Assembly: GCF_001272835.1 (NCBI RefSeq) | Contig: NZ_CP010546.1 | Span: 120,001 to 152,000, forward strand | Reading direction: 5' to 3' | DNA length: 32,000 nt | Source of the DNA: Mycoplasmoides pneumoniae FH | Lineage (GTDB): Bacteria; Bacillota_I; Bacilli_A; Mycoplasmatales; Mycoplasmoidaceae | Shown here: one piece after another, positions 26 through 28,730 of the stretch | Numbering within the stretch: the stretch's first letter is position 1 | Layout: each line of letters starts with the position of its first letter | The notes under the pieces: generated by a model | Told to the model about the DNA's origin: nothing | Seen by the model: the letters and a program-made list of their open reading frames with translations, nothing else | Databases searched by the model: none | Translations under genes and position numbers: made by a program

Positions 26-2929
<2,904 letters not shown>

Positions 2930-2967
2930 AAGCCTTTGGTAGGAAATACGCAGGATTGTCGTTTTTG

Positions 2968-3075
2968 TTTGGTGCCCATGTCGCTGTGGAAACACCTGGT
3001 TCCATTTCGAACCCAGCAGTTAAGCACAGTGGAGCCGAATGTAGCTGTTTCAGTGAGAATAGGAAAGCACCAAGC
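2968..3075 (+). rRNA. rrf: 5S ribosomal RNA
   Basis: tttggtgcccatgtcgctgtggaaacacctggttccatttcgaacccagcagttaagc...aggaaagcaccaagc is colinear with Firmicute 5S rRNA (helix I ends tttggtg/caccaagc, loop ccgaac-like tcgaacc). It lies ~40 nt after the 23S. Confidence 0.9.
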
Positions 3076-3091
3076 GTCAAGAAGATAAAAG

Positions 3092-3120
3092 AGACTTAGG
3101 CCTATGCCTAGGTCTTTTTT
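3092..3120 (+). terminator. Rho-independent terminator of the rRNA operon
   Basis: 10-bp stem agacttaggc/gcctaggtct (one G-U pair), 4-nt loop ctat, followed by a T6 run. Confidence 0.8.
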
Positions 3121-3208
3121 ATTGTTTTGGTAAGCCAAAATAGTCCATTTTATAGCTGTTTTTACTTTGCGAAAAAAACAGAAAACTCCAAGCAATCAAT
3201 TAAAGCTT

Positions 3209-3217
3209 TGAGATAAT
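3209..3217 (+). promoter_or_regulatory. Candidate extended -10 promoter element (TGaGATAAT)
   Basis: tgagataat matches TGnTAnAAT-type extended -10 elements. It lies ~40 nt upstream of the permease ATG. No experimental support. Confidence 0.3.
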
Positions 3218-3221
3218 TAAA

Positions 3222-3257
3222 GGCTTTGGTACTAGTCAAAACCAAAGCCGATTTTTT
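3222..3257 (+). terminator. Terminator-like hairpin abutting the permease start codon
   Basis: Perfect 9-bp stem ggctttggt/accaaagcc, 10-nt loop, then gattttttc. The T-run ends 2 nt before the ATG at 3259. Confidence 0.6.
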
Positions 3258-3258
3258 C

Positions 3259-4818
3259 ATGAACCAACAATTAAATACCACCAGGAAAAGTACAGCTGCT
3301 AGGGGCAGAATGGGACTTGTTGGTGGTATTTTACTCGTCATTGGTACCTGCATAGGGGCAGGTATTTTCTTTAAGAGTGAACGGGTGTTGCAAAACATGG
3401 GCGGAAACACCACTTTAGCCTTACTGGTGTGGTTAATGGCAGGGATTACCGTGATCTTAATGGGGTTGGCGCTGGTTGAAATTACTGCTAAAGCAGCCTT
3501 TGATGACTTGGCATTATTGTCATGAACACAAAAGTTTACCAATAACACCTTTTACAAGGCCTGTAAGCGCTTTTTAATCTGGATTTACTTGCCCACTACC
3601 TTCTTCTTTATGCCGTTGTATTTGGTGCAATCACTCCAAGATGGTTTGCGTGGTTTTGGGGTCGCCAACCACTTCAATACACCACATGATTGGGCCATTT
3701 GAATGGTCATAGTGCTGTTGATTAACCTGTGATTTTTCTTTACGAGTGGTCTTAGTGTTAAGTGAACCAGTGTGCAGAATGTCGTGCTATTATTGCTCAA
3801 AGTAATTCCCCTAATAGCAGTGGTTATTTTAGCGCTGTGATTGGGTGCAAGTGCTGAACAAATGGAACGCCAACCAGTGGTTCCAGTCAAAGATTTTACT
3901 GCCATTTTACCCTTCTTTGGTTGGTTTAGTGCTATGGGCGCGATTTTCTTTGCTTTTGATGGTTTTTACGTGTCAGCAGCAGCGAAAACGCAGTTGAAAA
4001 AACCAAAAAAATTACCGCAAGTAATGTTGTTGGGCTTAGGGATTGTGGTACTGATTTACAGCTTAATTGCACTAAGTGTGAGTTTAACCACACCTAACGG
4101 TGCCTTTTCGGGACTTGGTGATTGGTTAAAGCACAAAAAGCTTGGTTGATTCTTTGGCGTGCTCAATCTCTTAATAGCGCTTGGAGTAGCTGGGATTATT
4201 AACGGTTTTGTAATGTGAACGGGAAAGTTAACCCAAAGCTTAATTAAATCAGGAGAGTTGTGGGTACCTGATAAGTGTAAGCTCTGTTTAAATAAGCCCA
4301 AGCCAGTAGTGGGTTTAATCCATGCAGGGATTTTGATGGTGTTAACTACCGTAGCACTTTCTAGTTTAGGTGGTTTGTTGTACTTACCTAAAGTTAATGC
4401 TTCCTATGACGGCAAGGGCTTTAAATCAATGGGGTGCTTACTGGAGTTTGCTGACTTAATTGCCACTTGGACTAGTGTCGGGATCTTTTGGTTCTTGGGC
4501 TTAGTTTTACTGGGTGGTTTATTGCAAATCAAGAAACCGAAGCGGTGGTATTTTAGAACAACGGGTTGGCTAGCTGTAGTAGTGATTGGTCTCACTACTT
4601 TAGTGGTCATGGTGCAACCGTTTGTAGATTTAGGAATAGCAGTGTTTAACCGTAGTTATGAACGGATTGTGGCTAACACTATTTTGATTGCTATTCTTGT
4701 GATAATTGTTTTAGTAATGTTCTTTCCAACCGAACCAATTAAGCTAAGACTTTGACGCAAACGAATCCAAGCCATGGAAGCGTGCGGTGAGGATTGTGAC
4801 GCTTGCGTGGAGTATTAA
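3259..4818 (+). CDS. Amino-acid permease (APC superfamily), 519 aa with 8 in-frame UGA (Trp) codons
   Basis: Track ORFs 3226-3525, 3841-4149 and 4258-4755 are all frame 1 and join through TGA codons. N-terminal [10 protein letters not shown] permease signature and about 12 hydrophobic segments. True stop is TAA at 4816-4818. ATG 3259 chosen; the TTG at 3226 lies inside the hairpin. Confidence 0.85.
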
Positions 4819-4993
4819 CTAAAACTATAAAAAATAAAACTGGATAACCAAGCATGTAATATGAACAAGTTAAAGCGGCATAGTTAATTTGCGCTTAATT
4901 TCTTTTGGGGAGTTACACCGGGTAGAGGGCGAGTTTTGCTGGTATGCTTAGCGCGTTTTTGTAAGATTTGGCTTTCTTTCTAGTGTTGCTGAA

Positions 4994-6619
4994 ATGCAAT
5001 TTAAGTATGGTGCGCTAATTTTTAGCGGCTTTTTAGGACTTTCAATAGTTCTAGCTAGTTGTGGGGCGAGGGGTAAATTTGATCAAGTTGATGATGGTAA
5101 GATTAAGCTAGCTTCATCTTTAACTTCTAGAAGTGCGTCAGCGGCTTTACAAAAAGTTGTTGAAAAGTACAACAAGGTTAAAGGTGTAAATGATTACCCC
5201 ATTGAGATTACCCAGATTGCTGGTGGTTATGATGGCGGGCGAACTGATCTCCAAACCCGGGTTAGTGTAAAGGATAAAACCAGCTTTTACAACATGATTC
5301 TAAACTACCCTGATTTAGTGTCGGTGTTAGCCCGTAACGGGATGGAATTACCGTTTGATGGAGTCAATGTTGACAAGTTATCTCCCAACTTCTTAAAGTT
5401 CAATGAACGCATTAGTGGCGTAGCGAAAAAAGCTAACTATGCCATTCCCATTTCGATGTCAACCGATATCTTAATCCTGAATGCACCGGTGTTGCACTAT
5501 ATTTTGAACAGTGTTAAGAAGAATGATGGCAACACTAAAGTTCAAGTTAAAGCTCAGTCAAAAGATTCACAAACAAAAGTTAAAGGTACTATGGAAATTG
5601 GCACTGATGAAAGTACTAAAAACTTATGAAGTGATATTCAAAAGAAAGCTGGCGAAAATGGCAAAGCTACTACTGAAGGCACGAAGAAGGCAGCAGCAAA
5701 GTCTACTCATTTAACTCTGTTAACTAAGTCGGAACAAAGTACTCAAGGTAATAATGGAGCATCTGAAAGTGATAAAAAAATTGAAGAAACTTGGGGTACT
5801 TACAGTGAAGTTGATGGTGGTCTAAAGAATTACACCTTTAAAGCCGATGTGTTTGATACTTGACATGGGTTGATCGATTTTTCAACGCGCGTAGCAAAAT
5901 CATTTAAAAACAAAGTTAGTGATATTTCCACTAAAAAGGGCACTGACATTCAGGGCGTTTTAGGTCTAGACAGTACACCAAATGCTTTGTTTACCTCAGT
6001 TTTTGCTGCAGGTGATAGTAACTTTGATAACTTCTTTTATAAGGTTAAAGATGGTCGCGCTGACTTTAGTAACTTTAACGAAAACGGTACCTCTTACAAA
6101 AATCTGGAAAAGGTTTTTAATGACTATAAAAAACTCACAGACAGCAACGGTTTGTTTGTCAATAAAGGGGGTTCTTACACCTCTAACTTCCAGAAGTTTC
6201 ACCAGTTAGCCTACAGCATTTCCTCCTCTTCTGGTTATGCTTATGCGTTTGCTGGTGAAAATTCAAAACGTTTAAAGTTCAACGACGATACTTTCATTGA
6301 GTACCCTAGTTTTACCCAGGAAATTCATGCGCCTGGTCAAAGTAGTCAAAAAGAAGGTGGACAGCAACAAAGCAACAGTAAAGATAACGGCAATCTTTTA
6401 GGCACTTTTACTATTGAAGCAGCGAAAAGTAAAACAAAAACAGAAGTTAAAAAAACTGAAGACACACAAAATCAAGGCAAGAAGGCTGAAGGCACACCTA
6501 ACCAAGGTAAAAAAGCCGAAGGGACCGAAAACCAAGGTAAGACTATTTTCCTTTATAAAACATCAATTCCTAATGATAAGCAAGATGGTGTTGACGCTGT
6601 ATTAATTAAAGACAAGTAG
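4994..6619 (+). CDS. Lipoprotein, N-terminal part of a solute-binding-protein-like (MG185/MG260-type) lipoprotein; ends at an in-frame TAG
   Basis: Signal peptide [23 protein letters not shown] with a lipobox Cys. Track ORFs 4994-5629 and 5870-6619 are frame 2 and join via TGA. Sequence resembles family-1 extracellular solute-binding proteins ([14 protein letters not shown]). Confidence 0.85.
6470..6541 (+). repeat. Tandem 30-nt (10-aa) repeat NQGKKAEGT(P/E), 2.4 copies, inside the lipoprotein gene
   Basis: aatcaaggcaagaaggctgaaggcacacct / aaccaaggtaaaaaagccgaagggaccgaa / aaccaaggtaag. The units differ mainly at synonymous positions. Confidence 0.8.
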
Positions 6620-7360
6620 TTAATTCAAAAACTAGAGCAAGCTAAAAATAATAACGGAGCCGAGAAAAAGGATAAGTCTGAAACTAAAACCAATGAAAAC
6701 AAAGGCACAGTCATCGGTTACACCACTACGAGTTTCCTGAATGCTGACAAAAAGCATGTCTTTGAAATTAGCAAGCTTAATGATGAAAAATACGACCGCA
6801 AGATTATCGTTGGTGCTACTGAGGAACAATTAGATCAATCAAGTACGTTACAAAGTGCGGAAGCAATTATCCTGCCAGCACCTGGTAAATACAGTGCCGA
6901 AAACCAGCATAAGGTAATGATGACTCAAGGTCCTAATCTAATTGGTATCCATACTAATACCAAGGAAAATGAAGAAACGCAAAAGTTTGTTAACTGGTTC
7001 TTAAATACCAGTCTAACTTGAGATAACAACGAAAGCAAAACACCAGCGCAGTACTTTACCGAGTCTGCTTCTTACATCCTGCCTTTAAAAGAAACTTTTA
7101 CCGGCTCTAACAACAAAGGTCAAAGCGGCAAGAATGACGGTAAGAATTCCAATAACACCTTTAAAGCCAAAGCACTAGAGCTCTTTAAGGAACAGAGCGA
7201 AAACAAAATAGTGGGTTACAGTGATCCAAGCGATTTCAGGGGTGGTAAATTCCGCGAATCAATTGGTTCTGCCTTTAACGCCACGGTCAATTCACACGTT
7301 GACTTTAATACTTTCGTTGCTAACTTCCGTGCTAACTTAGGTTCTGGTTACGATAAATAG
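6620..7360 (+). pseudogene. In-frame continuation of the lipoprotein ORF after TAG (C-terminal solute-binding-like half)
   Basis: Frame 2 stays open for 246 codons (one UGA) after the TAG at 6617-6619, ending at TAG 7358-7360. There is no ATG/GTG/TTG until ATG 6917. The ending ...[29 protein letters not shown] is typical of the C-lobe of binding proteins. Confidence 0.6.
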
Positions 7361-7364
7361 TTAA

Positions 7365-9056
7365 TCCCACTTCTCCCCCACGCTTTCCCGTTTCTCCACC
7401 GGGTTCAACCTCGCGGGGGCACTCCTCGACCAGGTGTTGGATTATATTCCCTGGATTGGGAATGGGCACAGGTATGGGAATGATCACCGGGGTGTGGATG
7501 ATATAACCGCGCCTAAAACCGGCGCGGGGTCGTCCAGCGGAACTAGTACGAACACAAGTGGTTCGCGTTCCTTTCTCCCGACGTTTTCGAATGTCGGCGT
7601 CGGTCTCAAAGCGAATGTCCAAGCCACCCTCGGGGGCAGTCAGACGACGACTACGGGGAAAGATATTCCCAAATGACCCACCCTCGACCAAGCCAACCTC
7701 CAGCTCTGAACGGGGGCGGGGTGAAGGAATGATAAGGCTACTGGGAATAACACCTAAGGCAACGAAAACCACACCAAGTTCGCGAGTGCTACGGGCACGG
7801 GCCAGCAGCAGGGTGGTTCTTCAGGTACAACTAATTCCGCGGGGAATCCCGACTCGTTAAAGCAGGATAAGATTAGTAAGAGTGGGGATAGTTTAACCAC
7901 GCAGGACGGCAATGCGACCGGTCAACAAGAGGCCACCAACTACACCAACCTCCCCCCCCAACCTCACCCCCACCGCTGATTGACCGAACGCGCTGTCATT
8001 CACCAACAAGAACAACGCGCAGCGCGCCCAGCTGTTCCTGCGCGGCTTGTTGGGCAGCATCCCGGTGTTGGTGAATCGAAGTGGGTCCGATTCCAACAAA
8101 TTCCAAGCCACCGACCAAAAATGGTCCTACACCGACTTACAGTCGGACCAAACCAAACTGAACCTCTCCGCTTACGGTGAGGTGAATGGGTTGTTGAATC
8201 CGGCTTTGGTAGAAACCTATTTTGGGACGACGCGTACGTCTAGCACTGCGAACCAAAACAGTACAACCGTCCCCGGTATCGGTTTTAAAATTCCCGAACA
8301 AAATAATGATTCCAAAGCCACCCTGATCACCCCCGGGTTGGCTTGAACGCCCCAGGACGTCGGTAACCTCGTTGTCAGTGGCACCACGGTGAGCTTCCAG
8401 CTCGGCGGGTGGCTGGTCACCTTCACGGACTTTGTCAAACCCCGCGCGGGTTACCTCGGGCTCCAGTTAAGTGGCCTGGATGCCAGTGACAGCGACCAAA
8501 GGGAGTTAATTTGGGCCCCCCGGCCCTGAGCGGCCTTTCGTGGCAGTTGGGTCAACCGGTTGGGCCGCGTGGAGAGTGTGTGGGATTTGAAGGGGGTGTG
8601 GGCGGATCAAGCTCAGTTGGCCGCGCAAGCAGCTACAAGTAGTGCCACCACCGCAACAGGGGCTACCTTACCGGAACACCCGAATGCTTTGGCGTACCAA
8701 ATTAGCTATACCGACAAGGATTCGTACAAGGCTTCCACTCAAGGTTCGGGTCAAACCAATTCCCAAAACAATTCGCTCTACCTCCATTTGATTAAACCTA
8801 AGAAAGTCGAAAGCACGACCCAACTCGACCAGGGCTTAAAAAACCTGTTGGACCCCAACCAGGTTCGCACCAAGCTGCGCCAAAGCTTCGGTACAGACCA
8901 TTCCACCCAGCCCCAGCCCCAATCGCTCAAAACAACGACACCGGTGTTTGGAGCCATGAGTGGTAACCTCGGCAGTGTGCTTAGTGGTGGGGGTGCTGGA
9001 GGAGCAGGCAGCACCAATTCGGTGGACCTCTCCCCCGTTGAACGGGTGAGTGGGTC
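7365..9056 (+). pseudogene. RepMP2/3 copy (silent paralogue of the C-terminal half of the P1 adhesin gene), interrupted by a TAA and a +1 frameshift
   Basis: Translation [34 protein letters not shown]...[20 protein letters not shown]...[20 protein letters not shown]...[11 protein letters not shown] is colinear with the remembered P1 sequence. Frame 3 runs to about 7959 with a TAA at 7755-7757, then frame 1 after a C8 run at 7952-7959. No start codon or promoter. GC-rich. Confidence 0.9.
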
Positions 9057-9292
9057 ACTAACCATTAATAGGAATTTTTCTTATTAATAGGAACTTTTCT
9101 TTCAAAAAAGTTTTGAAGTTATTTTGGTGTCTTTACTAACTTAAAGCAATTTAGTGAACGAATACCCAAAAAGTATGAAATTAGTTAAATTAACGAGGCT
9201 TCACCGCTTTTTAAAACAAGTTCAATTGCAACTTGTTCCTTTGTTTAGCCAAAACTTTTTGCAAGTTTTATTGGCGCTTCTCAATAAACCGG

Positions 9293-9307
9293 TCAATTTA
9301 TTTAGTG
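9293..9307 (-). repeat. Inverted copy of the 15-16-nt motif CCACTAAATAAATTGA (left boundary of cassette 1)
   Basis: tcaatttatttagtg is the reverse complement of the motif that ends the three ~190-bp repeats at 10325-10340, 13712-13727 and 15565-15580. Confidence 0.7.
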
Positions 9308-9425
9308 AAAACACAACAATGAAAACAAATAAAAAATACGCCTTTGCAGCGTTGCTAATGCAAGCTCAAGCTAAGCTCCCAAATTCATTTAAATTCTTTC
9401 TTTCAAAGAAAGGAGGTATGGCTTA

Positions 9426-9977
9426 ATGAAAGAGAAAATTCCGTTTTATAACGAAAAAGAATTCCATGACATGGTAAAAAAGACCAAAAAGGGCACTTTT
9501 TCGGGATGATACATCATTGACAAAGATAACAAAAGTGTGGAATTCTCTGGCAGTTTTAACAGACAATTTAAACTTAACAAACCGGTTATACCAGTGAACA
9601 CGGAATACGTAACGCGTAAAGAATTTAACGAATATAAAGTTTCAAACGACCAACGGCTTACAAAGATTGAAACCACTTTGGCCGCCCAAGGTGAACAAAT
9701 CAACAAATTGACTCAAACTGTTGAAAAACAAGGCGAGCAAATCAATCAATTAGTTCAAGTTGTGCTTCTTCACGGTGAACAAATCAACAAATTGACTCAA
9801 ACTGTTGAAAAACAGGGCGAGCAAATTAAAGAACTTCAAGTGGAGCAAAAAGCTCAGGTTGAGCAAATTAAAGCTCAAGGAAAACAAATAAAAGCTCAAG
9901 GAAAAACGCTTAAGTCGATCCTACAAGCACTTGGAGGAATAAATAAACGCTTGGACAAAATTGATCCACCTAAATAG
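9426..9977 (+). CDS. DUF16/UPF0134-family coiled-coil protein, 183 aa
   Basis: Strong SD aaaggagg lies 8 nt upstream of the [34 protein letters not shown]...[10 protein letters not shown]...[21 protein letters not shown] heptad repeats match the remembered M. pneumoniae DUF16 family. One UGA codon joins to track ORF 9537-9977. Confidence 0.9.
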
Positions 9978-10340: not shown

Positions 10341-10391
10341 GTTGGTTTTTAAAAACCGCCAAAAAATTTTTAATTTAGTTTTTGCTACTTT

Positions 10392-11711
10392 CCCCTCCCC
10401 CTCACGGGTGAAAACCCCGGCGCTTGGGCCTTAGTGCGCGACAACAGCGCCAAGGGCATCACTGCCGGTAGTGAAAGTCAACAAACCACGTATGATCCCA
10501 CTCGAACCGAAGCGGCTTTGACCGCATCAACCACCTTTGCGTTACGCCGGTATGACCTCGCCGGGCGCGCCTTATACGACCTCGACTTTAGTAGGTTAAA
10601 CCCACAGACACCAACGCGCGACCAAACCGGGCAGATCACCTTTAACCCCTTTGGCGGCTTTGGTTTGAGTGGGGCTGCACCCCAACAGTGAAACGAGGTC
10701 AAAAACAAGGTCCCCGTCGAGGTGGCCCAAGACCCCTCCAATCCTTATCGGTTTGCCGTTTTACTCGTGCCGCGTAGCGTGGTGTACTATGAGCAGTTGC
10801 AGCGGGGGTTAGCGCTCCCTAACCAAGGGAGTTCGTCAGGCTCCGGTCAACAAAACACCACCATTGGCGCGTATGGGCTGAAGGTGAAGAACGCCGAGGC
10901 GGACACCGCGAAGAGCAATGAAAAACTCCAGGGCGATGAATCCAAGTCTTCCAATGGATCTTCAAGCACTTCCACCACCACCCAACGTGGGGGTTCGTCA
11001 GGGGACACCAAAGTCAAGGCGTTGCAGGTGGCGGTGAAAAAGAAATCCGGGAGTCAGGGCAACTCCGGTGAACAAGGCACCGAACAGGTGGAACTTGAAT
11101 CTAATGATCTCGCCAACGTTCCCATTAAGCGGGGCGAGGAGTCGGGTCAGTCCGTCCAACTCAAGGCAGCCGACTTCGGCACCACCCCATCCAGTTCGGG
11201 ATCAGGCGGCAACTCCAACCCCGGTTCCCCCACCCCCTGAAGGCCGTGGCTTGCGACCGAGCAAATTCACAAGGACCTCCCCAAATGATCCGCCTCGATC
11301 CTGATTCTGTACGATGCGCCTTATGCGCGCAATCGTACCGCCATTGATCGCGTTGATCACTTGGATCCCAAGGTGATGACCGCGAACTATCCGCCCAGTT
11401 GAAGAACGCCCAAGTGAAACCACCACGGGTTGTGGGACTGAAAGGCCAGAGATGTTTTGCTCCAAACCACCGGGTTCTTCAACCCGCGGCGCCACCCCGA
11501 GTGGTTTGACCAGGGCCAAGCGGTCGCGGATAATACCCAAACCGGGTTTGATACAGATGACACCGATAATAAAAAACAAGGCTTTCAAAAGGAAGCTGAC
11601 TCCGACAAGCCGGCCCCGATCGCCCTCCCGTTTGAAGCGTACTTCGCCAACATTGGCAACCTCACCTGGTTCGGGCAAGCGCTTTTGGTGTTTGGGATTT
11701 GTTTGTCTTAA
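10392..11711 (+). repeat. RepMP4 copy (silent paralogue of the N-terminal half of P1); uninterrupted ORF once UGA is read as Trp
   Basis: Frame 3 is open from 10374 to TAA 11709-11711. Translation [60 protein letters not shown]...NRTAIDRVDHLDPK...FEAYFANIGNLTWFGQALLVFG is colinear with remembered P1 residues ~60-520. The only possible start is GTG 10434, with no SD. Confidence 0.9.
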
Positions 11712-11749
11712 TTAACTAACAAATTAATAAATAGGTCTATGGATTAATT

Positions 11750-13535
11750 ACCTCACCCCCTACACGCCCTTTACGACACCGCTCAATGGGGGGCTGGATG
11801 TCGTGCGGGCCGCCCATTTACACCCCTCATACGAACTCGTGGACTGAAAGCGGGTGGGACAGAACAAGTTGGTGGCGCTGGTCCGCTCAGCGTTGGTCAG
11901 GGTGAGGCTTAATGATGGGACGAGTTCGGATTCCAATACCACCACTGATGGGGCGCTTACGTTTGACACGAATGAAAGTCAAAAAGCTTTAGGCTCCACG
12001 GACACGCAGGGTTCCGGGTCTAACTCCCAAGACTTCGCCAGCTACATCCTCATCTTTAAAGCCGCGCCCAGGGCCACGTGGGTGTTTGAACGGAAGATTA
12101 AGTTGGCGTTGCCCTACGTTAAAAACGAATCGGGAGCAGGGGACTCCACCACAACTAACAGTGGCTCCCTCTACAAAACCCTCCAAGACCTCCTCGTCGA
12201 ACAACCCGTGACCCCTTACACGCCCAATGCGGGGTTAGCCCGGGTGAATGGGGTTGCTCAGGACAAGGTGCATGGGTTGGAGTCTGGGTGAGACAACCAA
12301 CGTTCCCAAAAAAACCTCACCAACAACCCCGGACCCAAAGCCGTCACCGGCTTTAAGCTCGATAAGGGCCGCGCGTACCGGAAGCTAAATGAAGCTTGAC
12401 CGGTGTATGAACCCCTGGATTCGACCAAGGAGGGGAAGGGGAAGGATGAGAGCTCTTGGAAAAATTCGGAAAAAACAACGGCGGAAAATGATGCCCCGTT
12501 GGTGGGATCAACCGGGAGTCAAATGGCTTCTAGTACCAGTTTGGGCAATGTTGGGGACACCACTGCCCTAACTCCACTTTTAAGAGGTGCTACTACTACT
12601 ACTACCGTCCAGCTAAAACAAACAGATTCTAACAGTCAAGATCAACAAAAATTCCAAAAATATTTAAACACCGCCCAGGCCCTGCACCAGATGGGGGTGA
12701 TAGTGCCAGAACTTAGCCAAGGCGGTTGGCAAAGCCAAACAGCGCGGCACAGTTCCACCCGGGGACTACAGTCAGCCGGGGCCAATCGTGGCGCTAGTTT
12801 AGCGGCACGCACCACCACAACTGTGGGGGTGGGTAGAAGAGATTCCACTTCCACCACCTTGGAACTACCAAACGTCATCACCCAGCTTTATCATACCTCC
12901 ACGTCCCAACTCGCTTACTTAAATGGCCAGATCGTTGTGATGGGTTCAAACGCGGTACCGAGTTTGTGGTATTGGGTCGTGGATGAGCGAACCACGTCCG
13001 GGAGGGCGACTTGATGAGCGAAGACACATTTGAACTTCGGCACTGAAGTTCAAAAAAACTTCGTCGAAAACCAGTTGGGGTTTAAATCCGAAGACAACTC
13101 CAACACCTCCTTGACGAACTTCAAGAGTCAAGGCTTAACTCAGCCAGCTTACTTAATCAGTGGCCTTGACGTTGTGGCCGACCACCTCGTCTTTGCGGCC
13201 TTTAAAGCGGGCGCGGTGGGGTATGATATGACGACTGATTCGAACGCTTCGACCTACAACCAAGCGCTCACCTGGTCGACCACGGCCGGGTTGGACAGTG
13301 ATGGGGGGTACAACAACCTGGTGACGAATACTGCGGGGTTAAACGGTCCGATTAACGGCTTGTTTACCCTGTTAGACACCTTTGCCTATGTGACCCCGGT
13401 GAGTGGGATGAAAGGGGGGAGTAAGAATAACGAAGAAGTGCAAACGACCTACCCGGTCAAGTCCGACCAAAAGGCCACCGCCAAAATTGCGTCCTTAATT
13501 AATGCTTCGCCCTTAAACAGTTATGGGGATAATGG
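11750..13535 (+). repeat. RepMP5 copy (silent paralogue of the P40/P90 ORF6 gene); uninterrupted ORF once UGA is read as Trp
   Basis: Frame 1 is open from 11731 to TAG 13627-13629. Translation LTPYTPFTTPLNGGLDVVRAAHLHPSYELVDWKRVG...AWPVYEPLDSTKEGKGKDESSWKNSEKTTAENDAPLVG...LDVVADHLVFAAFKAGAVGYDMTTD...ASPLNSYGD is colinear with the remembered Mgp-operon protein 3 (P40/P90). No ATG start. Confidence 0.9.
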
Positions 13536-13537
13536 CG

Positions 13538-13727
13538 ATAAAAAAGCCATCCACCTAAGGTGAAAGGCAGACAGCTCCAAAATATTTTTGACTATTGGAA
13601 AACTAACAAAAGCTGTTAGTTTGATGTAGAGGCAAAACTATGAATTTACTAAATTTATTTAAATCAGCGGGAGCAGGCTCGTTTTTTCAACACAAGTCAC
13701 TCTACCTGCTCCCACTAAATAAATTGA
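13538..13727 (+). repeat. Structured dispersed repeat, copy 2
   Basis: Nearly identical to 15390-15580, with only a handful of mismatches. Contains hairpins aaactaaca/tgttagttt and gggagcagg(c)/(a)cctgctccc. Fused directly to the end of RepMP5. Confidence 0.85.
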
Positions 13728-19248: not shown

Positions 19249-20003
19249 ATGACAAACCAAAACCTACAAGACTTTCTGGACGGAGTTTTGTTAAAAGAGG
19301 AAAATTTAAACAAAATTACTGAAGTTTCCCTAGAAAAGGGATTACCGCACCTTTTAGATGAGGGTATCCATAACGAAGATAACTTTCAGATCTTTACGAG
19401 CCAAAAGATTGTGGCAGACATGATCAAAATGGTCGGTGTAAAGGAAATGAAAAATGTCCACACTACTGTTTTAGAACCAACTAGTGGTGATGGTGCTTTT
19501 ACTTGTGCTATTTTGGATTTACGTTTAAAAAACATTAAAAAATCAGACAGCTTTTAAAAGAAGCTTTAACCGGTCTATCCACCATTTATTCAGTTGAAAT
19601 TGACGAAGAGTTGGTTTGGTTACAACGCAATAACCTTTACTCTATCTTTTTAGCCTTCTTAAAAAAGCACGGTATTTTTAACGAAGAGTTAAGTCTCTTA
19701 GTGAAAAAAATCTTGATGATTAATGTGAGTTGGGGCGAGTTAATCACAGAAACCAAAGATAACGAGAACTTCGTTTGTAACTACGATTATTTTTTAAGGA
19801 ATAAAAAGACAAAGAAAAAACCCGCAAAGCATAAACATGAATTTCCAGAGGGTTTATTTTCCAATGGAGAAGGTAAGTGCAAAAGTTTGTTTGTTAATTG
19901 GTCATTTGCTGATGTCATTAATGAAATTGCTCATAATTCCAATTTTGACTTTGCCAAAATAGCAAAGATACCTGGTGAAATAATTCAATTTCAAATTAAT
20001 TAG
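19249..20003 (+). pseudogene. Small methyltransferase-like gene (SAM-binding motifs I/II, no clear NPPY) split by a -1 lesion in an A6 tract
   Basis: Frame 1 ORF 19249-19557 encodes [13 protein letters not shown]...[11 protein letters not shown]. Frame 3 is open from 19539 and encodes [25 protein letters not shown]... to TAG 20001-20003. One extra A in aaaaaa (19537-19542) would fuse them into ~251 aa. Confidence 0.6.
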
Positions 20004-21254
20004 TATGAGTCAAAATGGCGATAAAGACCACGAATTGATTCAGGGAAAGGTCAAAAGCAAAACTGAAATAGAAGATTCCGTTATATTGGATCAAGACACT
20101 TTGCAAGGCAAGGGTGAAGAAAAAACTAAATTAGATGAGTTGATTAGGTGAGAAGCCGAGAAAAACGACTTGCTCAAGTTAATTGATAACGTCGGTAATG
20201 ATGAAGTTTTTACTACTGTAGAAACTTGTCAAAGAATGCTTGACGATCTCTTTCCTCAAGACCATGAAGTTTGATCGAATCCGGACTTAAAGTGATTAAA
20301 TCCTTGTGATAAAAATGGTGTTTTCTTTCGTGAAATTGCGTTAAGGCTAGACAAAGGCTTGGCCAAAGTTATACCGGATGAATATGAACGCAAGAAACAC
20401 ATCATGACCAAGATGCTTTTTAGTATTGACTTAACTAAATTTACTAGCTTGATGGTTCGTCGTACGCTTTACTATTGCATTAAAGCTAACAAGCGTAAAA
20501 CTAGTGAAGATGAGGGCTGTGCAATTGCAAATGGCGCATGATTTAATAACGAATGCGGTAATGTTGTTAAACCTTACAAGGAACATTATTTCGACAAACA
20601 AGGAAAAAATAAAAAATGTAAGTTTTGTAGAACAGATGAGAAATTTAAATACCAACAATCTTCTTCAAATGAAAAATACGCCTATGACTTCATTCATTTA
20701 AATCCAAACGAATATGAAAGCTACTTTAAAACTAATTTTGGTGTTATGAAATTTGATGTAATTATTGGTAATCCACCTTATCAGTTAGCAAATAATCGTG
20801 GTGGTGATGCTGGTGATGGTAATGGAGCAAACCCCATTTTTCAAGAATTTATCTTAAGAGCACTTGAATTACAACCAAAATATTTAGCAATGATTGTTCC
20901 TGCAAGATGAATTAATTCCTCTGAAAAAGTTTTTCTAAAGTTCAGAGCAAAATTACAAAAATCAAATGGTTTTAAAGGAATTAATATTTTCTTTGACTCT
21001 AAACATTGCTTTCCAAACAGACAAATAAAAGGTGGTGTTTGTTACTTTAATTGACAGAATGGCTATGAGGGTCAAACACTCATAACCACTAAATCTTCAA
21101 AAAAAGGCAAACAAGAAGAAATTGAAACTTATAAGAGGGACTTTTTTGCACCTGTTTTAAACAATACTGAGCAAGTTATTTTCCGCAAAAAATTTAACAC
21201 GACATTTATAAAAAGGTAGATTCTTTTCACGCTAATGAATTAATCCATGCTCTC

Positions 21255-21268
21255 AGAGAGAGAGAGAG
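21255..21268 (+). repeat. (AG)7 dinucleotide tract followed by gcaacttagaag
   Basis: Read directly. It is the first of two repeat modules in copy A. Confidence 0.95.
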
Positions 21269-21300
21269 CAACTTAGAAGATCAGCCTTCTAATGGAATAA

Positions 21301-21328
21301 CACACACACAGAGAGAGAGAGAGAGAGA
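21301..21328 (+). repeat. (CA)5(GA)9 compound dinucleotide tract followed by gcaatttagaaa
   Basis: Read directly. It sits at the junction of the methyltransferase core and the C-terminal domain. Confidence 0.95.
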
Positions 21329-21905
21329 GCAATTTAGAAACTAATTTCGAAAGTTTCTCTAAACGTGTATCTGGCAAGGATCTGTTTAATTTAGCAACTA
21401 ATTTTTTTGATAAGTTTCCCTTAGTTGTAAAAGACAAAAAATTTCCTGGTGCAATTTCCATTTATAGCAGTTCGGGCGTAAAATACGCCGAACTGAAAGA
21501 GATCCCTAATATAAAGAATAAGGAACAAATTTCCAAATACAAGATCATTATGCCCAGAATAACTGGTAGCGGTGTGTTTGGTGATTACAGACCCAATATA
21601 AAAATTGTTGAACCTACTGGAGTTTGCACTCATAGTTATGTAGTTGCTTATTTAACGACAAATAAGTTTGAAGTTGAAAATGTCTTTTTATACATGAAAA
21701 CTAAATTTTTTAGATTTTTTGTCGAGATTTTTAAAGCAACCATCAATATCAGTTCACATAACTTCAAATACGTTCCCATTCAAGATTTTTCCCGTCCTTG
21801 AAATGACAGGGAGCTTTATCAAAAATACAACTTAACTCAAGAAGAATGACAATACATCGAGAACAATATTAGTTCTTATGAAAATTAGCTTTAAAATTAA
21901 GGAAC

Positions 21906-24900
21906 ATGAAATTTAAGCTTAATTTTCACGAAAAAATCAACCAAAAAGATTGCTGACAATCTCTAATTGATCACAAGGAACGTTCCTACTCATTAGACTT
22001 CGTTAATAATACGGAAAAGGAACTACCACTTATCTATGGATACGAAGTAAAAGACTTTGAAAATCACGGGGTTAAAATTGGTTATACAACATGTAAACCG
22101 TCTGAGAAAATTCAATCAGCGATAGAAGAACGTATCCTTTCACAAGAAAAAGAATTTCGCTTTTTAGATGAAAATATAGAAAAGATAGAGGAAGTTAAAG
22201 TTATCTTTTGAGCTATTGCCATCAATGAAAAGGATGAATCATTCAAGGATTATTCACTCCATTCATTTATTAAGGAAAAAAACTTATTAAAAGAATCGCA
22301 AGCTGGCGGTGAATGGTTCATAGTTGATGAAAATAAGGATAAGTTTGAATATCTTAGCCAAATTTTTAGACAGTTTCGCGCACCTTTTCTTTTTAAAAAT
22401 AAGGAAATTTATACACCTAGAAAAGAGCAAGCCGCATGTGTTGAAGTGTTAGAAAGATACTTTCAAGCCAATCCCGAAAACGGTAGGTTTTTAATGAACT
22501 GCAAAATGCGGTTCGGTAAATGTTTCACCTTGTACTCTTATGCACAAAAGAATAACATTAACAAGATTTTGATCCTAACGTTTGTTCCAGCTGTCGAAGA
22601 ATCTTGAAAGGATGATTTAAATCACATTGAAAAGAATTACAAATTTTATACCGATGATGATTTGCAAAAATCTAATTTTGATTTAAAGAATCAAAACGAG
22701 CCTTATGTAGTCTTTTTATCACTGCAAAACGTCTTAGGTAAACAAAGAATAGATGGCGCCAAAACTGATTTTGATAAAGAGCGAATTAGTAAGCTACAAG
22801 AGATTGATTTTGATTTAATTGTTTTTGATGAGTACCACTACGGAGCCAACAAAAAACGAACCCAAATCAAAGTTGAAAAAGTCAATAAAAAGATTGATAA
22901 TCCAGAACAGCAAGATAATCAAGATGATGCTGAGGAAGAATTGGCAAGTACTTTTAAGTTAAAAGACATCAAAAGTAAATTTCAATTTTCATACAAACAA
23001 TTAGTTTGTCTGTCAGGTACTCCTTTTTCCTCTTTAAGAAATAATGAGTTTTCCAGTAAAGATCAGGTGTTTACTTATTCTTACTTTGATGAACAGAAGG
23101 CCAAATCAGCAGAAAATCACCCACTCAAATTAGGGCAATACGGAATATTTCCGGAAATGAATATTTACTGTTTTGAATTGGCGGAAATTTTTACTGCACA
23201 AGAACAAGAAATATTCATAACTCCAGGTAAAGGTAAAAATAAGTTACCTGAAATTAGTTTTCGAAAGCTGTTTCAAACGGAAAACGTTTCTAAAGAATCA
23301 AGCAAACCAGTTTACAGATTTGTAAATGAAAACCTGGTTGAAAAGCTTATAGATTCTTTAATTGATAAACGTAAAGGTTTTAGCCACACACCTTTAAGTT
23401 GGGAAAACATTGACAAGCATAAGCATTCCTTATTAATTTTGCCAACTAGAGTTGCTTGTTTTGCGTTGGCCAATTTACTTAAAAATCACTGGTACTTTGA
23501 AAACAATGATTTTCAAATTATCAACATGTCAGAGAGCCAGTTTGGTAATGGCAAAAAAGCTTTAATTGAGCTTAATAAACACTTAGATGAAGCTAAAAAG
23601 ACTAATAAAAATACTTTAACTATTACTGTAGCTAAATTAACTATTGGTATTACAGTTAAAGAGTGATCGACAGTATTTTTCTTGAAGGATTTAAAGGGTG
23701 CTGAATCTTATTTCCAAACGATTTTTAGAATCCAAACTCCATATATAAAGAACTGTAAAAATCTGAAAGAAATTTGTTATGTTTACGACTTCAACATGTA
23801 TAGGTGTTTGGAAGTTACTAACGAGTATTCAAAACAAACACAAACAGACCCTAAATTTAGTGCTAGTTGATTCCAAAACTTAGACAAATTTTTACCTATC
23901 TATTTAGTTAGAGGCGATGAAATTCAAAAGACAGATCCAGAAATATTGCAGAAGTATGAGTACTTCATTATGGACAAGCGTGCATTCTCTACAAGATGAA
24001 TGGATGAAAGTAACATTATCGACATAGATGTACTTTGCAATGTTGGGCAAGATGAAGATGCGCAAAAAATATTGAAAAAAATATTAGCTCATAAAAAATT
24101 TAAATCATCCAAAAAGAAGCGAGAGTTTGAAGACGTTCATTTGGAAAAAAGTCCAAAAAGTGAGGCATTTAGTGAAGGCGTTCGCTCTGGTAAGGATTAC
24201 GCCGCTGAACAAGGTAATGTTTTAGAAGAACTTGAAAATTTCTGAAACTTTAACCAAGCATTAGAACAAAAAGCAAAAGCTGAATTTCAACAAAAAAACT
24301 TTGATGATAATGAATGAAACAATTACAAAAAAGGGTTTAATTTTGGAGTTAATAAGCATTTTGAAGATAAAGTTTCCATAAAGAAAATTGTTCAGAATAA
24401 AATCAAAGACTTTAAAAAAAGAAAAGGAAGAACAACTTCAACTTTTAAAAAATGAAAATGGTTATATTTCTGATGAGAATAACTTAAAAAAGCTAAGAGA
24501 TTTAATTAAAGAATATGTACAAAACAGAAGCAACATACCTCCAGAATTAGACTGATTTTTTTACCGAGACCGTTTTATTCAGCTCTTTGAAAAGAGTTGT
24601 TACCAGCATTTCAAAAAGAAGACTTTAACTGAAGAACAAAAAGAGAAAAAGAAAAAAGTTAATGACAACTTTGATAGTTTAATGCATACATGGGCACGTG
24701 TTCTGCACTTTCTTTATGTATCTGTTTATAGAGAAAAAACTTTAAGAGATGTGTTGAATAAAACTGATCCCAAAGTTTTTTCAGTGGCAGTCGGAATTGA
24801 AATGGATGAGTTTTCCAAAATCCAAAAATTTTTTAAAGTGGAAAATATGAATAGACTCATCGAACAGTTTAGTTTTAGAGAAAGTGTTAAAACTGAAAAC

Positions 24901-24969
24901 ACAGAAAAATCACAGTATAGAAACAGTTTCAATTGATTCGGTTTTGGCCCCGATAGTTTAAAGAGCTAA
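21906..24969 (+). pseudogene. GIY-YIG/T5orf172-like domain + SF2 (DEYH) helicase, Res-like protein, ~1020 aa if an A7 frameshift is corrected
   Basis: ATG 21906 follows aaggaa. Frame 3 runs through track ORFs 22662, 23682 and 24000 (joined by UGA) to TAA 24480-24482. Frame 1 is open from 24382 to TAA 24967-24969. Motifs: LIYGYEV..VKIGYTT...LHSF...GGEWF; helicase I-like MRFGKCFT, II VFDEYHYG, III LSGTPF, VI-like YFQTIFRIQT. Changing A7 (24414-24420) to A6 fuses the two frames. Confidence 0.75.
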
Positions 24970-24985
24970 ATTTCACATTTTTAGT

Positions 24986-26811
24986 ATGAACAAAAATAGT
25001 GGTAAAGACTACGAATCGATTCAAGGTAAGATTAAGAGTAAAGCTGAAATAGAAGATTCAGTTATATTGGAAAAAGAAACTTTGCAAGGCAAGGGTGAAG
25101 AAAAAACTAAATTAGATGAGTTGATTAGGTGAGAGGCCGAGAAAAATGACTTACTCAAGTTAATTGACAACGTCGGTAATGACGAAGTTTTCACTCCCGT
25201 AGAAACTTGTCAAAGAATGCTCGATGAGCTCTTTCCTGAAGATCATGAAGTTTGATCAAATCCCGATCTCAAGTGATTAAATCCGTGTGATAAAAACGGA
25301 GTTTTCTTTCGCGAAATTGCGCTAAGACTTGATAAAGGATTAACCAAAATTATTCCCGACGAATATGCCCGCAAGAAGCATATTATGACCAAGATGCTTT
25401 TTAGCATTGGCTTAACTAAATTTACTAGTTTGATGGTGCGTCGCACGCTTTACTATTGCATTAAAGCTAACAAGCGTAAAATCAGCGAAGATGAGGGTTG
25501 TGCAATTGCAAATGGCGCACGATTTAATAATGAATTTGGCAATGTTGTTACCCCTTATAAAGAACACTATTTTGGAAAAGAATCGAAAAGCAAAAACTGT
25601 CACTTTTGTGGGACAAATAAGAATTCTAAATATGTAAATTCTATGACTGAAGAAAAGTATGCCTATGACTTCATTCATTTAAATTCGGATGAATATGAAA
25701 ACTACTTTAAAACTAATTTTGGTGTTATGAAATTTGATGTAATTATTGGAAATCCGCCTTACCAGCTATCTAATGGTAGCGGTTCTGATGGCAATGGAGC
25801 CAAAGCAATTTTTCAAGATTTTGTTTTAAAAGCAATTGACTTAGAACCAAAATATTTAGCGATGATTATCCCAGCAAAATGAATGATTTCTGCTGAAAAT
25901 ATTTTTTTAAATCTAAGAGATAAATTAAAGAAAAATAAAGGTATAAAAGAAATTAATATTTTTTTCGACTCTAAAGACTGTTTTCCAAAGAGAGAAATAA
26001 AAGGTGGCATTTGTTACTTTATCTGGCAGAATAACTATCAAGGTAAGACTCTTATAAATACCAAATTTTCAAAGAAAGGAAAAAGCACAGAGATCGATAG
26101 TTCTAAAAGAAACTTATTTGTTTCCGTTTTAAACAACACTGAACAAATCATTTTTCGCAAAAGGATTTGACAAGACATTTACACAAAGATTGATTCCATC
26201 TCTGCTAGTGAAATGAAGAACACACACACACAGAGAGAGAGAGCAATTTAGAAGTTAGATTTCTTAATTTCTCTGATTACGTTTCAACGCAAAAATTCTT
26301 TAATCTAAGAAGTAATTTTTTCGATAAATTTCCTTCGATTTTGAAAGCAGAAAAATTTCCCGGTTTGATTGCAATTTATGGAAGTCATTCGGTTATTAAA
26401 CACGTGGATATTAAAGATATTCCGCAAATAAAAAATAATGAAGAAATTGCTAAATACAAAATTATTGTTCCACACGTTTATAGCCGTGGCAATGGAACTT
26501 TTGGAAATTACAAACCAAAAGTAAAAATTATTAAACCTAATGAAATTTGCACCGAAACTTATTTAGTGGTATATCCCACCGAAAGTAAAGTTGAGATTGA
26601 AAACGTCGCTTCTTATATGAGAACTAAATTTTTCAGATTTTTAGTTGAAATTTTTAAGGATTCTATTAACACAAATTCTCAAAATTTCAAGTTTATTCCT
26701 CTACAAGATTTTTCACGTCCTTGGAACGATAGAGAACTTTATGAAAAATACGGTTTAACACTCGAAGAACAGCAATACATCGAGGCGAACATAAGTGCTT
26801 ACGAGGACTAA
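24986..26811 (+). pseudogene. Gamma-class N6-adenine DNA methyltransferase, copy B; out of frame only at the (CA)n(GA)n tract
   Basis: Frame 2 from 24986 to 26251 gives 421 aa with [26 protein letters not shown] and [12 protein letters not shown]. Frame 1 is open from 26209 to TAA 26809-26811 (C-terminal domain ...TKFFRFLVEIF...PLQDFSRPWNDRELYEKYGLTLEEQQYIE). Removing one dinucleotide gives a single stop-free ORF of 607 aa. Confidence 0.85.
26221..26242 (+). repeat. (CA)6(GA)5 compound dinucleotide tract followed by gcaatttagaag
   Basis: Read directly. It is positionally equivalent to 21301-21328 in copy A but the unit numbers differ. Confidence 0.95.
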
Positions 26812-27117: not shown

Positions 27118-28730
27118 ATGCTAGATAAATTACTCCAGAAATTTCGAGACCAAAAGAAGCCCGTCTTCCACAAAGAAGAGGGCTACTGGGAAATTAGTGC
27201 CTTGCGGAAATGGGCAGCCATTTTAATAATTGCCTTTGGAGCTGGCATTATTTACATTGTGCCCTACTTTGCCTTCTTTCAGTTTAAGACAGCAGTAGCT
27301 AATGTAACGGGAGTGGAGCCCAACAGAATCTCCCTTCTCTTAACTGCTTACGGGATTGTTTCATTGCTGTTTTATATTCCTGGTGGTTGGTTAGCTGACC
27401 GGATTTCAGCTAAAGCGCTGTTTTCGGTATCAATGTTTGGTACTGGCATTATTACCTTCTGGTACTTCTTAGTTGGTTTGAAGGGCATAGTGTGGATTAC
27501 ACCCAACTAGTTATTATCCACGTCCTGTATGCCCTTAGTACGGTCTTAACCTTCTGGAGTGCCTTCATTAAAAGTATTAAGTTATTGGGTCCAGCGGATG
27601 AACAAGCGAGGTTGTATTCCACATCTGAAGGATCACGCTACTTAATCCAAGTAATTACTGGTTACATTAGTGCTGGTTTGGGTGCTATTGTCCTTATTAG
27701 TACTCCCTTTCTCATTTACAAAGCACCAACTGCTGCTGACCCTAAAAACTTAGCTTCTTCCTCAGGGATCTTCTTTGCCTTACTGTTTTATGCCATTTGT
27801 TATGTGTTAGCTGGTTTACTGTCACTGTTTTTTTTACCAGGAAAGTTCTGGGAAAAGCGCAAGATTTACTTGGAAGATGAACGAATTGAATACTTTAACC
27901 CTGTGGACCAGGCTTATCACATCTTTAAATCGGAAGCAGAATTAGAAGCCTTTAAGAAACATAACACTAAGGTTTTTTGAACGAAGGTATGAACTGATAC
28001 CAAAGAAACTTTGAGTTCTACAAGCGTTTGGTTAATTGCCTTTCTGATCTTCTTTATTATGAATGTGTACCAAACGATTGCTAACTTTGGTGCTAACATT
28101 TTGGAATCGCTAGGACTAGAGGCAGCACTCTCCCCAACTTTAAGTAATACCTATATCTATGGGATTCCGGTGTTAGGGGCAATCTTTTCTGGTTTGATTA
28201 ACAAAAAGTTAACTAAATCAACCGCTAAAAGTCTGATTGTGCAAGCCTTGTTTGTCATTTTGGGTACCTTAGCCTTTTTAGTAATAACACTAGCTTCCCC
28301 AGCCAAACCAGAAACTGGTGCATTTAACCAAGCTACCTTGTGAATAGCATTTGTGGTGATTTGCTTCATCATGTTCTTTATTGGCGCGAACCGTTCCATT
28401 TTTTGGAGTACGATCACAGAACTGAAAGTCAATAAGGAAATAGTAGGACTGGCAGTTGGTTTTATTTCGATTATTGGTTTTTCCAAAGATGTGTGGTTAA
28501 GTCCCTTACTGACTGGTACTACTAACCAGTTCATTGTCAAAAACAGTCAGGGTACCTCGTTTTACAGCCAGCAAGCCTTGGTAGCCTGAGCCATTTTTGC
28601 CCTAATTAATGCTTGTTTAGCACTACTAGTGACTTACATGATAGTGCGCAAAGTGAAGTATGGCAAAGTGTGAGTTAACCCTAAATTTAAAAAAGTCTTT
28701 GCACTAGGAGAACAACAATATGGACACTAA
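27118..28730 (+). pseudogene. MFS-type transporter split by a frameshift near 27489-27495 (~536 aa if repaired)
   Basis: Frame 1 from 27118 to 27510 (stop TAG) contains the MFS loop motif GGWLADRISAKA. Frame 3 is open from 27414, and track ORFs 27492, 28011 and 28353 join via UGA to TAA 28728-28730. Multiple hydrophobic helices on both sides of the shift. The sequence gtgtg at the junction suggests a 2-nt insertion. Confidence 0.75.

Follow-up and report, generated by a model that had tools for sequence, protein, structure and literature searches.

A decayed restriction-modification remnant and a candidate repeat-switched orphan methyltransferase in Mycoplasmoides pneumoniae

The closest studied analogue of the locus described here is the DnmA (YeeA)-YeeB-YeeC cluster of Bacillus subtilis, in which an N6-adenine methyltransferase (MTase) of the Eco57I superfamily, a superfamily 2 (SF2) helicase and a T5orf172/GIY-YIG protein likewise lie in a low-GC acquired island (PMC9973331). 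The B. subtilis cluster has been interpreted as a non-functional restriction-modification (R-M) relic whose MTase persists as an orphan, and its homologues in Vibrio crassostreae add to phage resistance (PMC9973331). We propose the same fate, a relic with an orphan MTase, for four closely packed genes on one strand of Mycoplasmoides pneumoniae, the homologues of MPN107-MPN111 in strain M129. They occupy positions 19249-26811 of a 32-kb stretch of the strain FH chromosome (NZ_CP010546.1, 120,001 to 152,000), which we call the window.

The locus itself is known and mostly dead. It was listed as a putative Type II system in the 2013 M129 methylome paper. REBASE and UniProt label MPN109 and MPN110 as the N-terminus of RM.MpnORF109P and the C-terminus of 110P, a putative pseudogene, and the existing entry name for MPN_108 and MPN_111 is "uncharacterized adenine-specific methylase." A 2020 study termed mpn109-110 frameshifted pseudogenes and reported that methylase fragments increase upon Lon depletion. 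These entries cover the identical genes in M129 fragment by fragment, without the three-gene family to which they belong, the pattern of shared and private lesions, the tract polymorphism or the full-length alleles of the second MTase. Here we document the anatomy of the locus, its synteny with modules in other bacteria, its lesions among isolates, the polymorphism of its repeat tracts and natural alleles in which the second MTase is open. We read it as a dead restriction system accompanied by a repeat-switched, structurally intact orphan MTase, with a probability of about 0.7. As far as we have found, the natural ON alleles of a repeat-switched MTase and the definition of a three-gene GIY-YIG-translocase family are both new; our literature search turned up no report of phase variation, repeat-driven switching or a third motif at this locus, and no experimental study of the intact three-gene relatives.

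All translations use the Mycoplasma code (table 4, TGA = Trp); a table-11 list of open reading frames (ORFs) breaks the region at every TGA. Isolates were compared in 11 M. pneumoniae genomes: the window and eight others in a nine-genome alignment, then two more. In this reading the gene coordinates, motif positions and gap sizes given by an initial annotation of the window are correct, as are its domain calls: a small S-adenosylmethionine (SAM)-binding MTase-like protein (gene 1), two Eco57I-type N6-adenine MTases (A and B) and, between them, a GIY-YIG/T5orf172-SF2 fusion (the helicase). Of the profiles that it proposed as a check, Eco57I was matched in both MTases and ResIII in the helicase, and Helicase_C and T5orf172 drew no match in the M. 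pneumoniae copy.

MTase B carries the main argument. A simple sequence repeat in its coding frame, at the junction of the catalytic domain and the variable C-terminal region, sets the gene ON or OFF, and both states occur among natural isolates. Tract lengths of 22, 28, 34 and 40 nt leave the frame open. The alleles read in DNA, given as numbers of AC and AG units, are (5,5), (6,6), (7,12), (9,5) and (7,10), that is, 20, 24, 38, 28 and 34 nt; six of the nine aligned genomes have (5,5), the window has (6,6), and the remaining three were read in other genomes. Full-length ON proteins were predicted from the in-frame lengths and then found on record: five wild-type proteins of 609-611 aa with NPPYQ, on 10 contigs in total, encoded by (7,10) on four contigs, (9,5) and (6,8) on one each, and (8,6) and (8,9) on two each. 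The DNA of two ON isolates shows a single open 611-aa frame, with the helicase and MTase A still broken and gene 1 intact; GCA_030159415.1 and GCA_001296805.1 are among the ON isolates. The OFF fragments on record end in eight different tails and represent both wrong frames. MTase B behaves like a simple-sequence contingency locus, with natural isolates occupying all three frames, and the initial suggestion that dinucleotide slippage could reopen it agrees with the in-frame alleles that exist in nature. Across the 11 genomes, MTase B has no frameshift or stop outside the tract.

The open frame encodes what appears to be a complete enzyme. Pfam Eco57I (PF07669) is found in both MTases (E values 1e-21 and 2e-22), whose motifs run in the order X, I, IV, followed by the variable C-terminal region. 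The repaired MTase B can be aligned over its full extent (residues 26-602) with intact MTases from other species, with 37% identity. The two M. pneumoniae copies are 93-97% identical over residues 41-160 and only 28-68% identical beyond residue ~400; judging from its variability across the MTase family, this last region probably determines target specificity. An ON MTase B may act as an orphan methylase adding a third N6-methyladenine (m6A) motif. In M129, only CTAT and GAN7TAY methylation was detected, and mpn111 was set aside as a duplicate (2013 methylome paper). M129 carries the OFF (5,5) allele, which is consistent with its two motifs, and the silence of these MTases in the laboratory strain, as the initial annotation had supposed, fits both that methylome and the lack of activity from cloned mpn107 and mpn108.

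Two side observations concern the MTase family as a whole. Its alignment has an invariant His...CxxC...His pattern (H167, C175, C178, H201) between motif I and NPPY, at about residues 200-215 of MTase B in the window (CHFCGT), which suggests a zinc-binding insertion. In addition, 3 of 36 related modules from other bacteria have poly-G tracts inside the MTase gene (L047 at 5515, L017 at 2189, L040 at 5293). The G9 tract of L047 is exactly where its MTase frame changes; the G8 tracts of L017 and L040 are in frame. Such slippage-prone tracts may recur in the family, but these are metagenome assemblies, in which homopolymer errors are possible.

The other two large genes present a different picture. 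In the helicase, the A7 frameshift is identical in 11 of 11 genomes, and the 193-aa C-terminal fragment that it leaves is found on 312 contigs. Lineage-specific breaks have been added: the four M129-like genomes (L005, L010-L012) have an extra A at 22394, which divides the gene into 165 + 718 aa, and the 309-like lineage has CAA>TAA at 23514, which yields 536 + 318 aa. MTase A is an Eco57I-family (PF07669, E value 1.8e-22), predicted gamma-class N6-adenine MTase, and is dead. The deletion in its A-run, defined against copy B, is common to all isolates. At position 21196 the window and L006-L009 have A, giving TAA, and the M129-like genomes have G, giving TGA; the latter also have an extra T at 21638. 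In 10 of 11 genomes a common stop closes a 404-aa N-terminal fragment; L066 stops earlier, at 282 aa. Both genes are plain pseudogenes, with identical lesions in all isolates and additional lineage-specific breaks. The initial annotation had named identical lesions with substitution-type stops and no variation as the mark of plain decay; the helicase and MTase A display identical lesions together with such stops, and MTase B does not.

The repeat tracts of MTase A are also polymorphic. Across the 11 genomes its first tract (A1) is (AG)6-13 and its second (A2) is (AC)4-9(AG)3-10, with (4,3) at A2 in all four M129-like genomes, and its protein fragments of 213, 215 and 217 aa differ in the numbers of RE/TH repeats. 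Because the tracts of this dead gene vary just as freely as that of MTase B, slippage is intrinsic to such tracts, and variation in MTase B is no proof of selection. In the whole 32-kb window, dinucleotide tracts of at least 5 units occur only at homologous positions of the two MTase genes, and so do not belong to a general background of repeats.

Gene 1 is uninterrupted, at 251 aa, in all 10 other isolates, so that the claim that none of the four genes is intact is right for the window strain and wrong elsewhere. Its frameshift is private to the window strain, and the resulting 102-aa fragment is found on only 8 contigs. The lesion had been assigned to an A6 tract; an inserted A there does open the frame, but comparison of the isolates places the missing T at 19548-19551 instead. 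The other three lesions proposed (the helicase A7 run, the MTase B tract, and the indel, TAA and tract of MTase A) stand.

The broken genes can be matched to intact relatives. Repaired at A7, the helicase has ~1600 homologues, many of 990-1120 aa, at 97-100% coverage, and because these are full length, the repair recreates a real protein. Pfam finds ResIII in it (E value 5e-7), over the N-lobe only, and no Helicase_C, T5orf172 or GIY-YIG match; NCBIfam has no match for the helicase or the MTase. The T5orf172 and Helicase_C assignments accordingly come from family-level and structural evidence. A Pfam scan of N-terminal domains matched T5orf172 in 12 of 18 family members (best E value 1e-4). 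The N-terminal ~165 residues are conserved, with invariant Y44, Y46, H54, G55, K57, G59, R76, E83, H119 and E136-W137-F138, and NCBI names the plasmid relatives "GIY-YIG nuclease family protein." A structural model, made for the intact homologue P0015 and not for the M. pneumoniae copy (pLDDT 77, pTM 0.61), has a beta-beta-alpha-alpha-beta-alpha N-terminal domain, two RecA lobes and an all-helical C-terminal domain. Its best Foldseek matches in the PDB are all translocases of double-stranded DNA: Chd1/Snf2 remodellers, LlaBIII (4xqk, second-best, E value 3e-12, 914 aligned columns) and SauUSI. Neither the single protein nor family profiles built for the helicase, for its N-terminal domain and for the MTase drew anything useful from PDB sequences. 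Taken together, family profiles, motifs and the model support the prediction of a T5orf172/GIY-YIG-type domain fused to an SF2 double-stranded DNA (dsDNA) translocase.

Some helicase relatives depart from this architecture: P0017, P0083, P0092, P0093, P0100 and P0120 (~1250-1266 aa) have an added AIG2/GGACT-like domain (PF06094, PF13772). In the M129-like genomes, the extra A at 22394 makes a free-standing 165-aa ORF, MPN109, which is the T5orf172/GIY-YIG-like domain alone. Mass spectrometry put MPN109 at about 42 copies per cell (2013 methylome paper), so this nuclease-domain fragment of a pseudogene is actually made.

Gene 1 belongs to a family of 190-250-aa proteins (257 members) with near-perfect motifs X, I and II and SNF(I/V)WG at the position expected for NPPY, whose members co-locate with the helicase family. 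In the window, motif X (FQIFTS) lies at 19384-19401 and a further motif at 19471-19500, and there is no NPPY. Pfam finds no domain in gene 1, and a sequence/profile search of the PDB with MPN107 gave nothing useful. A structural model matches, weakly, only the first ~100 residues of the adenine MTases CamA, BsaXI, MmeI and LlaGI. A protein annotated "N-6 DNA methylase" on a Rhizobium plasmid is a homologue (E value 9e-9). We consider it probably the SAM-binding N-terminal half of an MTase, not catalytic alone, in agreement with the negative result for cloned mpn107 (2013 methylome paper). Cloned mpn108 likewise showed no activity (same paper); it was the 404-aa truncation, and its inactivity follows from the lack of the putative recognition region.

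The initial annotation found a layout of two MTases bracketing one helicase that corresponded to no canonical system. Comparison of gene neighbourhoods resolves it into a widespread and strictly syntenic three-gene module plus an extra MTase copy. In all 36 loci from other bacteria with enough upstream sequence, the gene immediately preceding the helicase encodes an Eco57I MTase; the first gene is MPN107-like in 19, an alternative ~330-aa gene in 16 and neither in 1. Gene 1 and the alternative gene resemble each other weakly (BLAST E value about 0.04, hhalign probability 40%). The hosts are mostly uncultured gut Bacilli, Mollicutes, Acholeplasmatales, Anaeroplasmataceae and Erysipelotrichaceae, and a Rhizobium phaseoli plasmid carries the trio as "N-6 DNA methylase," "Eco57I methylase" and "GIY-YIG nuclease family protein." In one locus (L013, intact module at 4626-9976) the neighbours are defence genes (GmrSD, MrcB/NOV_C). 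A second MTase downstream of the helicase was found in 0 of 33 other loci, which makes MTase B a duplication restricted to M. pneumoniae among the loci examined.

The plasmid trio (L064, 585-7445, pRphaN671a; intact module at 2649-7445) is of interest in its own right. It sits on a mobilizable alphaproteobacterial plasmid beside tcmP and a DUF5131 gene, and its helicase is shorter (847 aa), with much of the C-terminal helical domain missing.

Defence-system profiles gave a further clue to the family's relationships. One PADLOC Type IIG restriction endonuclease-MTase profile (PDLC03626, 1359 positions) is matched by the helicase at 82-602 and by the MTase at 988-1356. A profile spanning both proteins implies that fused relatives exist, with the order nuclease, motor, MTase, recognition domain, as in Type ISP; none occurred among the best 120 matches of the helicase or MTase search. 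BREX, DISARM, Hma and MADS were considered and rejected: PADLOC returned only generic Type II/IIG R-M models and a weak N-terminal MAD2 match in gene 1.

These observations suggest a history. The locus would be the remnant of a horizontally acquired, ATP-dependent R-M system from a conserved three-gene family, composed of an MPN107-type half-MTase, an Eco57I gamma-class MTase with a variable C-terminal recognition region, and a T5orf172/GIY-YIG-SF2 translocase. In intact hosts, by resemblance to Type ISP and Type III systems, the MTase would mark its site in host DNA, and unmarked DNA would trigger ATP-driven translocation by the motor and cutting by the GIY-YIG domain. In M. pneumoniae, the MTase would have been duplicated downstream of the helicase, and the recognition region of the copy would have diverged. 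The helicase and MTase A would then have been killed by the frameshifts now common to all isolates examined, with lineage-specific stops still accumulating. Slippage of the hypermutable MTase B tract, in the linker ahead of the recognition region, among three frames would leave most isolates with a ~420-aa truncated product (OFF) and a minority with 609-611 aa (ON).

How far can this reading be trusted? Several observations weigh against it. ON alleles are rare, about 10 contigs, compared with 285 and 89 contigs for OFF C-terminal fragments, and all those found are on one, type-2-like, lineage background, and M129-like isolates have an OFF tract, (AC)5(AG)5, that is short and apparently stable. 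One ON isolate (L007, GCA_002128205.1) has Q260H right after NPPY (window-equivalent 25765), a position at least 90% conserved across the MTase family. Substitutions in the nine-genome alignment of the locus number 14 nonsynonymous and 1 nonsense versus 2 synonymous, and those in MTase B 4 nonsynonymous and 0 synonymous, so that purifying selection is not indicated; the pattern is near the neutral expectation in what is a very small sample. In the presumed nuclease domain, the M. pneumoniae copy matches only MUG113, at an E value of 0.05, below Pfam's curated cut-off. The B. subtilis cluster showed no restriction or antiphage activity (PMC9973331), and restriction of DNA by intact members of the exact family is predicted from domain content and analogy. 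The Q260H isolate was found by unbiased sampling; as a side observation, the change may be a compensating, activity-reducing one where the MTase frame is open.

In a rival explanation the whole locus, MTase B included, is simply decaying, its tract a mutational hot spot and its in-frame alleles products of chance without function; the protein might then be inactive, unstable or dependent on lost partners. We consider this less likely than not, though far from negligible. Where the tract is long, chance alone would put about 1/3 of alleles in frame, and ON alleles are indeed roughly a third of those seen in the variable lineage. The substitutions look neutral in MTase B as in the locus (15 versus 2), the equally variable tracts of dead MTase A need no selection, Lon clears truncated methylase fragments in M129, and the 2013 methylome paper reports low MPN111 RNA and no peptide. 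However, of the three large genes MTase B alone is free of frameshifts and stops outside its tract, and neighbours of similar age carry two or three each. Its catalytic motifs are all intact, and so, in 10 of 11 genomes, is gene 1, its likely partner. The ratio of nonsynonymous to synonymous change within the species comes from 4 substitutions and has almost no statistical power.

A second alternative would make the locus a poised, reversible R-M system, in which shortening the helicase run from A7 to A6 and removing 2 nt from MTase B bring back the pair as a form of bet-hedging. In the window exactly those two changes do restore both frames, and the repaired helicase aligns full length with intact homologues. 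Yet A7 does not vary in the 11 genomes, its C-terminal fragment recurs on all the contigs counted above, and a collection of 15 billion proteins contains no repaired helicase of 1020 or 1021 aa. Most isolates have one or the other of the further helicase breaks, and helicase substitutions in the nine genomes are 7 nonsynonymous and 1 nonsense versus 1 synonymous. We therefore judge recovery of a helicase-MTase B pair, which the initial annotation had thought two slippage events away, to be highly improbable. Even less credible is that errors of sequencing or assembly produced the differences in tract length. Some platforms are prone to error in dinucleotide and homopolymer tracts, and many of the records are draft assemblies, but the alleles recur independently ((7,10) on its four contigs includes two separate assemblies, and (5,5) is shared by most of the aligned genomes), tracts of 20-38 nt are well inside read length, patterns such as the A2 allele of the M129-like genomes follow lineage, and complete genomes are among those that differ.

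The confidence that we attach to a structurally intact, switched MTase does not extend equally to its function. We regard an active, biologically meaningful ON MTase B as a possibility and not an expectation. We are more doubtful still about the combined proposition that MTase B is a working switched orphan m6A MTase, the first simple-repeat phasevarion candidate in M. pneumoniae, and that the intact three-gene family is an uncharacterised ATP-dependent restriction class across Bacillota, Actinomycetota and Pseudomonadota; as a whole this seems unlikely.

The features of the locus are collected in Table 1. The four genes are separated, in order, by 1, 17 and 16 nt. Their GC content is 31.9%, versus 39.9% in the upstream pheS/pheT flank and 41.3% in the downstream flank, in line with the AT-rich island described initially. 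The block looks like an island, and it is this GC contrast from which we read horizontal acquisition. Downstream lie genes for a major facilitator superfamily (MFS) transporter and a carnitine-acyltransferase-like protein, followed by infC-rpmI-rplT.

Table 1. Coordinates of genes, motifs, domains and lesions (positions in the window; nt, nucleotides; aa, amino acids)
Feature	Position	Strand	Remarks
Gene 1 (MPN107 homologue)	19249-20003	+	251 aa in other isolates; table 4
Gene 1 lesion	19548-19551	+	T4 here, T5 in all 10 other isolates (1-nt deletion)
MTase A (MPN108 + unannotated C-terminal part)	20005-21888	+	Eco57I family; table 4
MTase A NPPY	20770-20781	+	residue 256
MTase A lesions	21187-21197	+	1-nt deletion in A-run 21187-21192; TAA 21195-21197 (TGA Trp in copy B)
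MTase A repeat region	21255-21329	+	(AG)7 21255-21268 in 53-nt duplicated segment; out-of-frame (AC)5(AG)10 21300-21329
Nuclease-helicase gene (MPN109/MPN110 homologue)	21906-24969	+	1020 aa after repair; pseudogene
Helicase N-terminal T5orf172/GIY-YIG-like domain	about 22017-22385	+	predicted from family-level and structural evidence
Helicase SF2 dsDNA-translocase core	about 22414-23860	+	predicted from motifs and model of intact member
Helicase GKC	22509-22526	+	motif
Helicase DEYH	22824-22838	+	motif
Helicase SGTP	23010-23027	+	motif
Helicase Q..FR	23709-23741	+	motif
Helicase lesion	24414-24420	+	A7 run; deletion of one A gives 1020-aa frame
MTase B (MPN111 + downstream fragment)	24986-26811	+	paralogue of MTase A
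MTase B NPPY	25751-25762	+	residue 256
MTase B tract	26220-26243	+	(AC)6(AG)6, 24 nt, OFF here; -2 nt gives 607-aa frame

Two other features of the window deserve mention. The MFS gene (27118-28730) falls into two overlapping ORFs, one of 130 aa (27118-27510) and one of ~412 aa, identically in the window and all 10 other isolates, and may represent a conserved frameshift or a mis-called start. Two GC-rich blocks, at 7332-9087 and 10374-13629, have 52-58% GC versus 40% in the window, with long open frames on both strands, and are probably RepMP/adhesin-related repeat elements.

M. pneumoniae, a major respiratory pathogen, has very few transcription factors, and the view of its methylome as two fixed motifs comes from M129. 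If ON MTase B is active, a reversible switch would create epigenetic differences among isolates, and those of the type-2-like lineage that are ON would have, genome-wide, a third methylation motif absent from M129. This could affect gene expression or DNA uptake in a regulator-poor pathogen, with a bearing on strain variation, on transformation barriers for Mycoplasma chassis and on differences between types 1 and 2. Should MTase B prove inactive, the locus would remain a clean, well-dated case of stepwise R-M decay. The intact relatives, as a strictly syntenic three-gene system with a GIY-YIG-type nuclease predicted to be fused to a chromatin-remodeller-like motor, are a candidate for characterisation as a defence system.

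How does the locus compare with known systems in detail? DnmA of B. subtilis is an MmeI-type MTase of ~880 aa. The M. pneumoniae MTases, in contrast, are ~560-610 aa and have no MmeI_* match in Pfam (E<=0.1). In the DnmA cluster the helicase and T5orf172 are encoded by separate genes downstream of the MTase, whereas here they form one polypeptide with T5orf172 N-terminal; the gene order differs, an extra small MTase-like gene comes first, and repeat-driven switching has not been reported for DnmA. The likeness consists in domain content within one operon, as the cluster is described in PMC9973331.

The family would work in the manner of Type ISP and Type III enzymes, pairing a site-specific adenine MTase with an ATP-driven translocating nuclease, and belongs to neither. 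In functional order, it agrees with the Type ISP enzymes LlaGI and LlaBIII, which likewise combine a nuclease, an SF2 dsDNA translocase, a gamma-class adenine MTase and a recognition domain. The motor resembles theirs in its fold match to LlaBIII and in the presence of Walker A, DEYH, SGTP and motif VI. However, a Type ISP enzyme is one polypeptide, whereas in M. pneumoniae and all 36 related loci the parts are separate genes, and the Mrr-type PD-(D/E)xK nuclease of Type ISP has no counterpart here: the family gives T5orf172/MUG113 (GIY-YIG clan) matches and no Mrr match. In Type III systems the Mod MTase is beta-class (N6_N4_Mtase, PF01555) with a central recognition domain, whereas only Eco57I was found here, and their Res subunit ends in a C-terminal PD-(D/E)xK nuclease, in contrast to the N-terminal GIY-YIG-type domain and helical C-terminus seen in this family. 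Type IIG/IIL enzymes such as Eco57I and MmeI share the gamma-class Eco57I-type MTase domain with NPPY, but join endonuclease and MTase in one ATP-independent chain; here the MTases lack a nuclease domain, and the partner is a predicted ATPase motor.

The switch itself is best compared with phasevarions. The tract of MTase B differs from theirs in being a compound (AC)n(AG)m repeat in an interdomain linker, not near the 5' end, and in a different MTase family. The likeness lies in tract alleles and frames among isolates. In Type III mod genes and in the phase-variable Type IIG gene cj0031 of Campylobacter jejuni (PMC4889913), a repeat inside the MTase frame likewise toggles the enzyme ON and OFF among isolates, and several phasevarions have an inactive cognate restriction gene.

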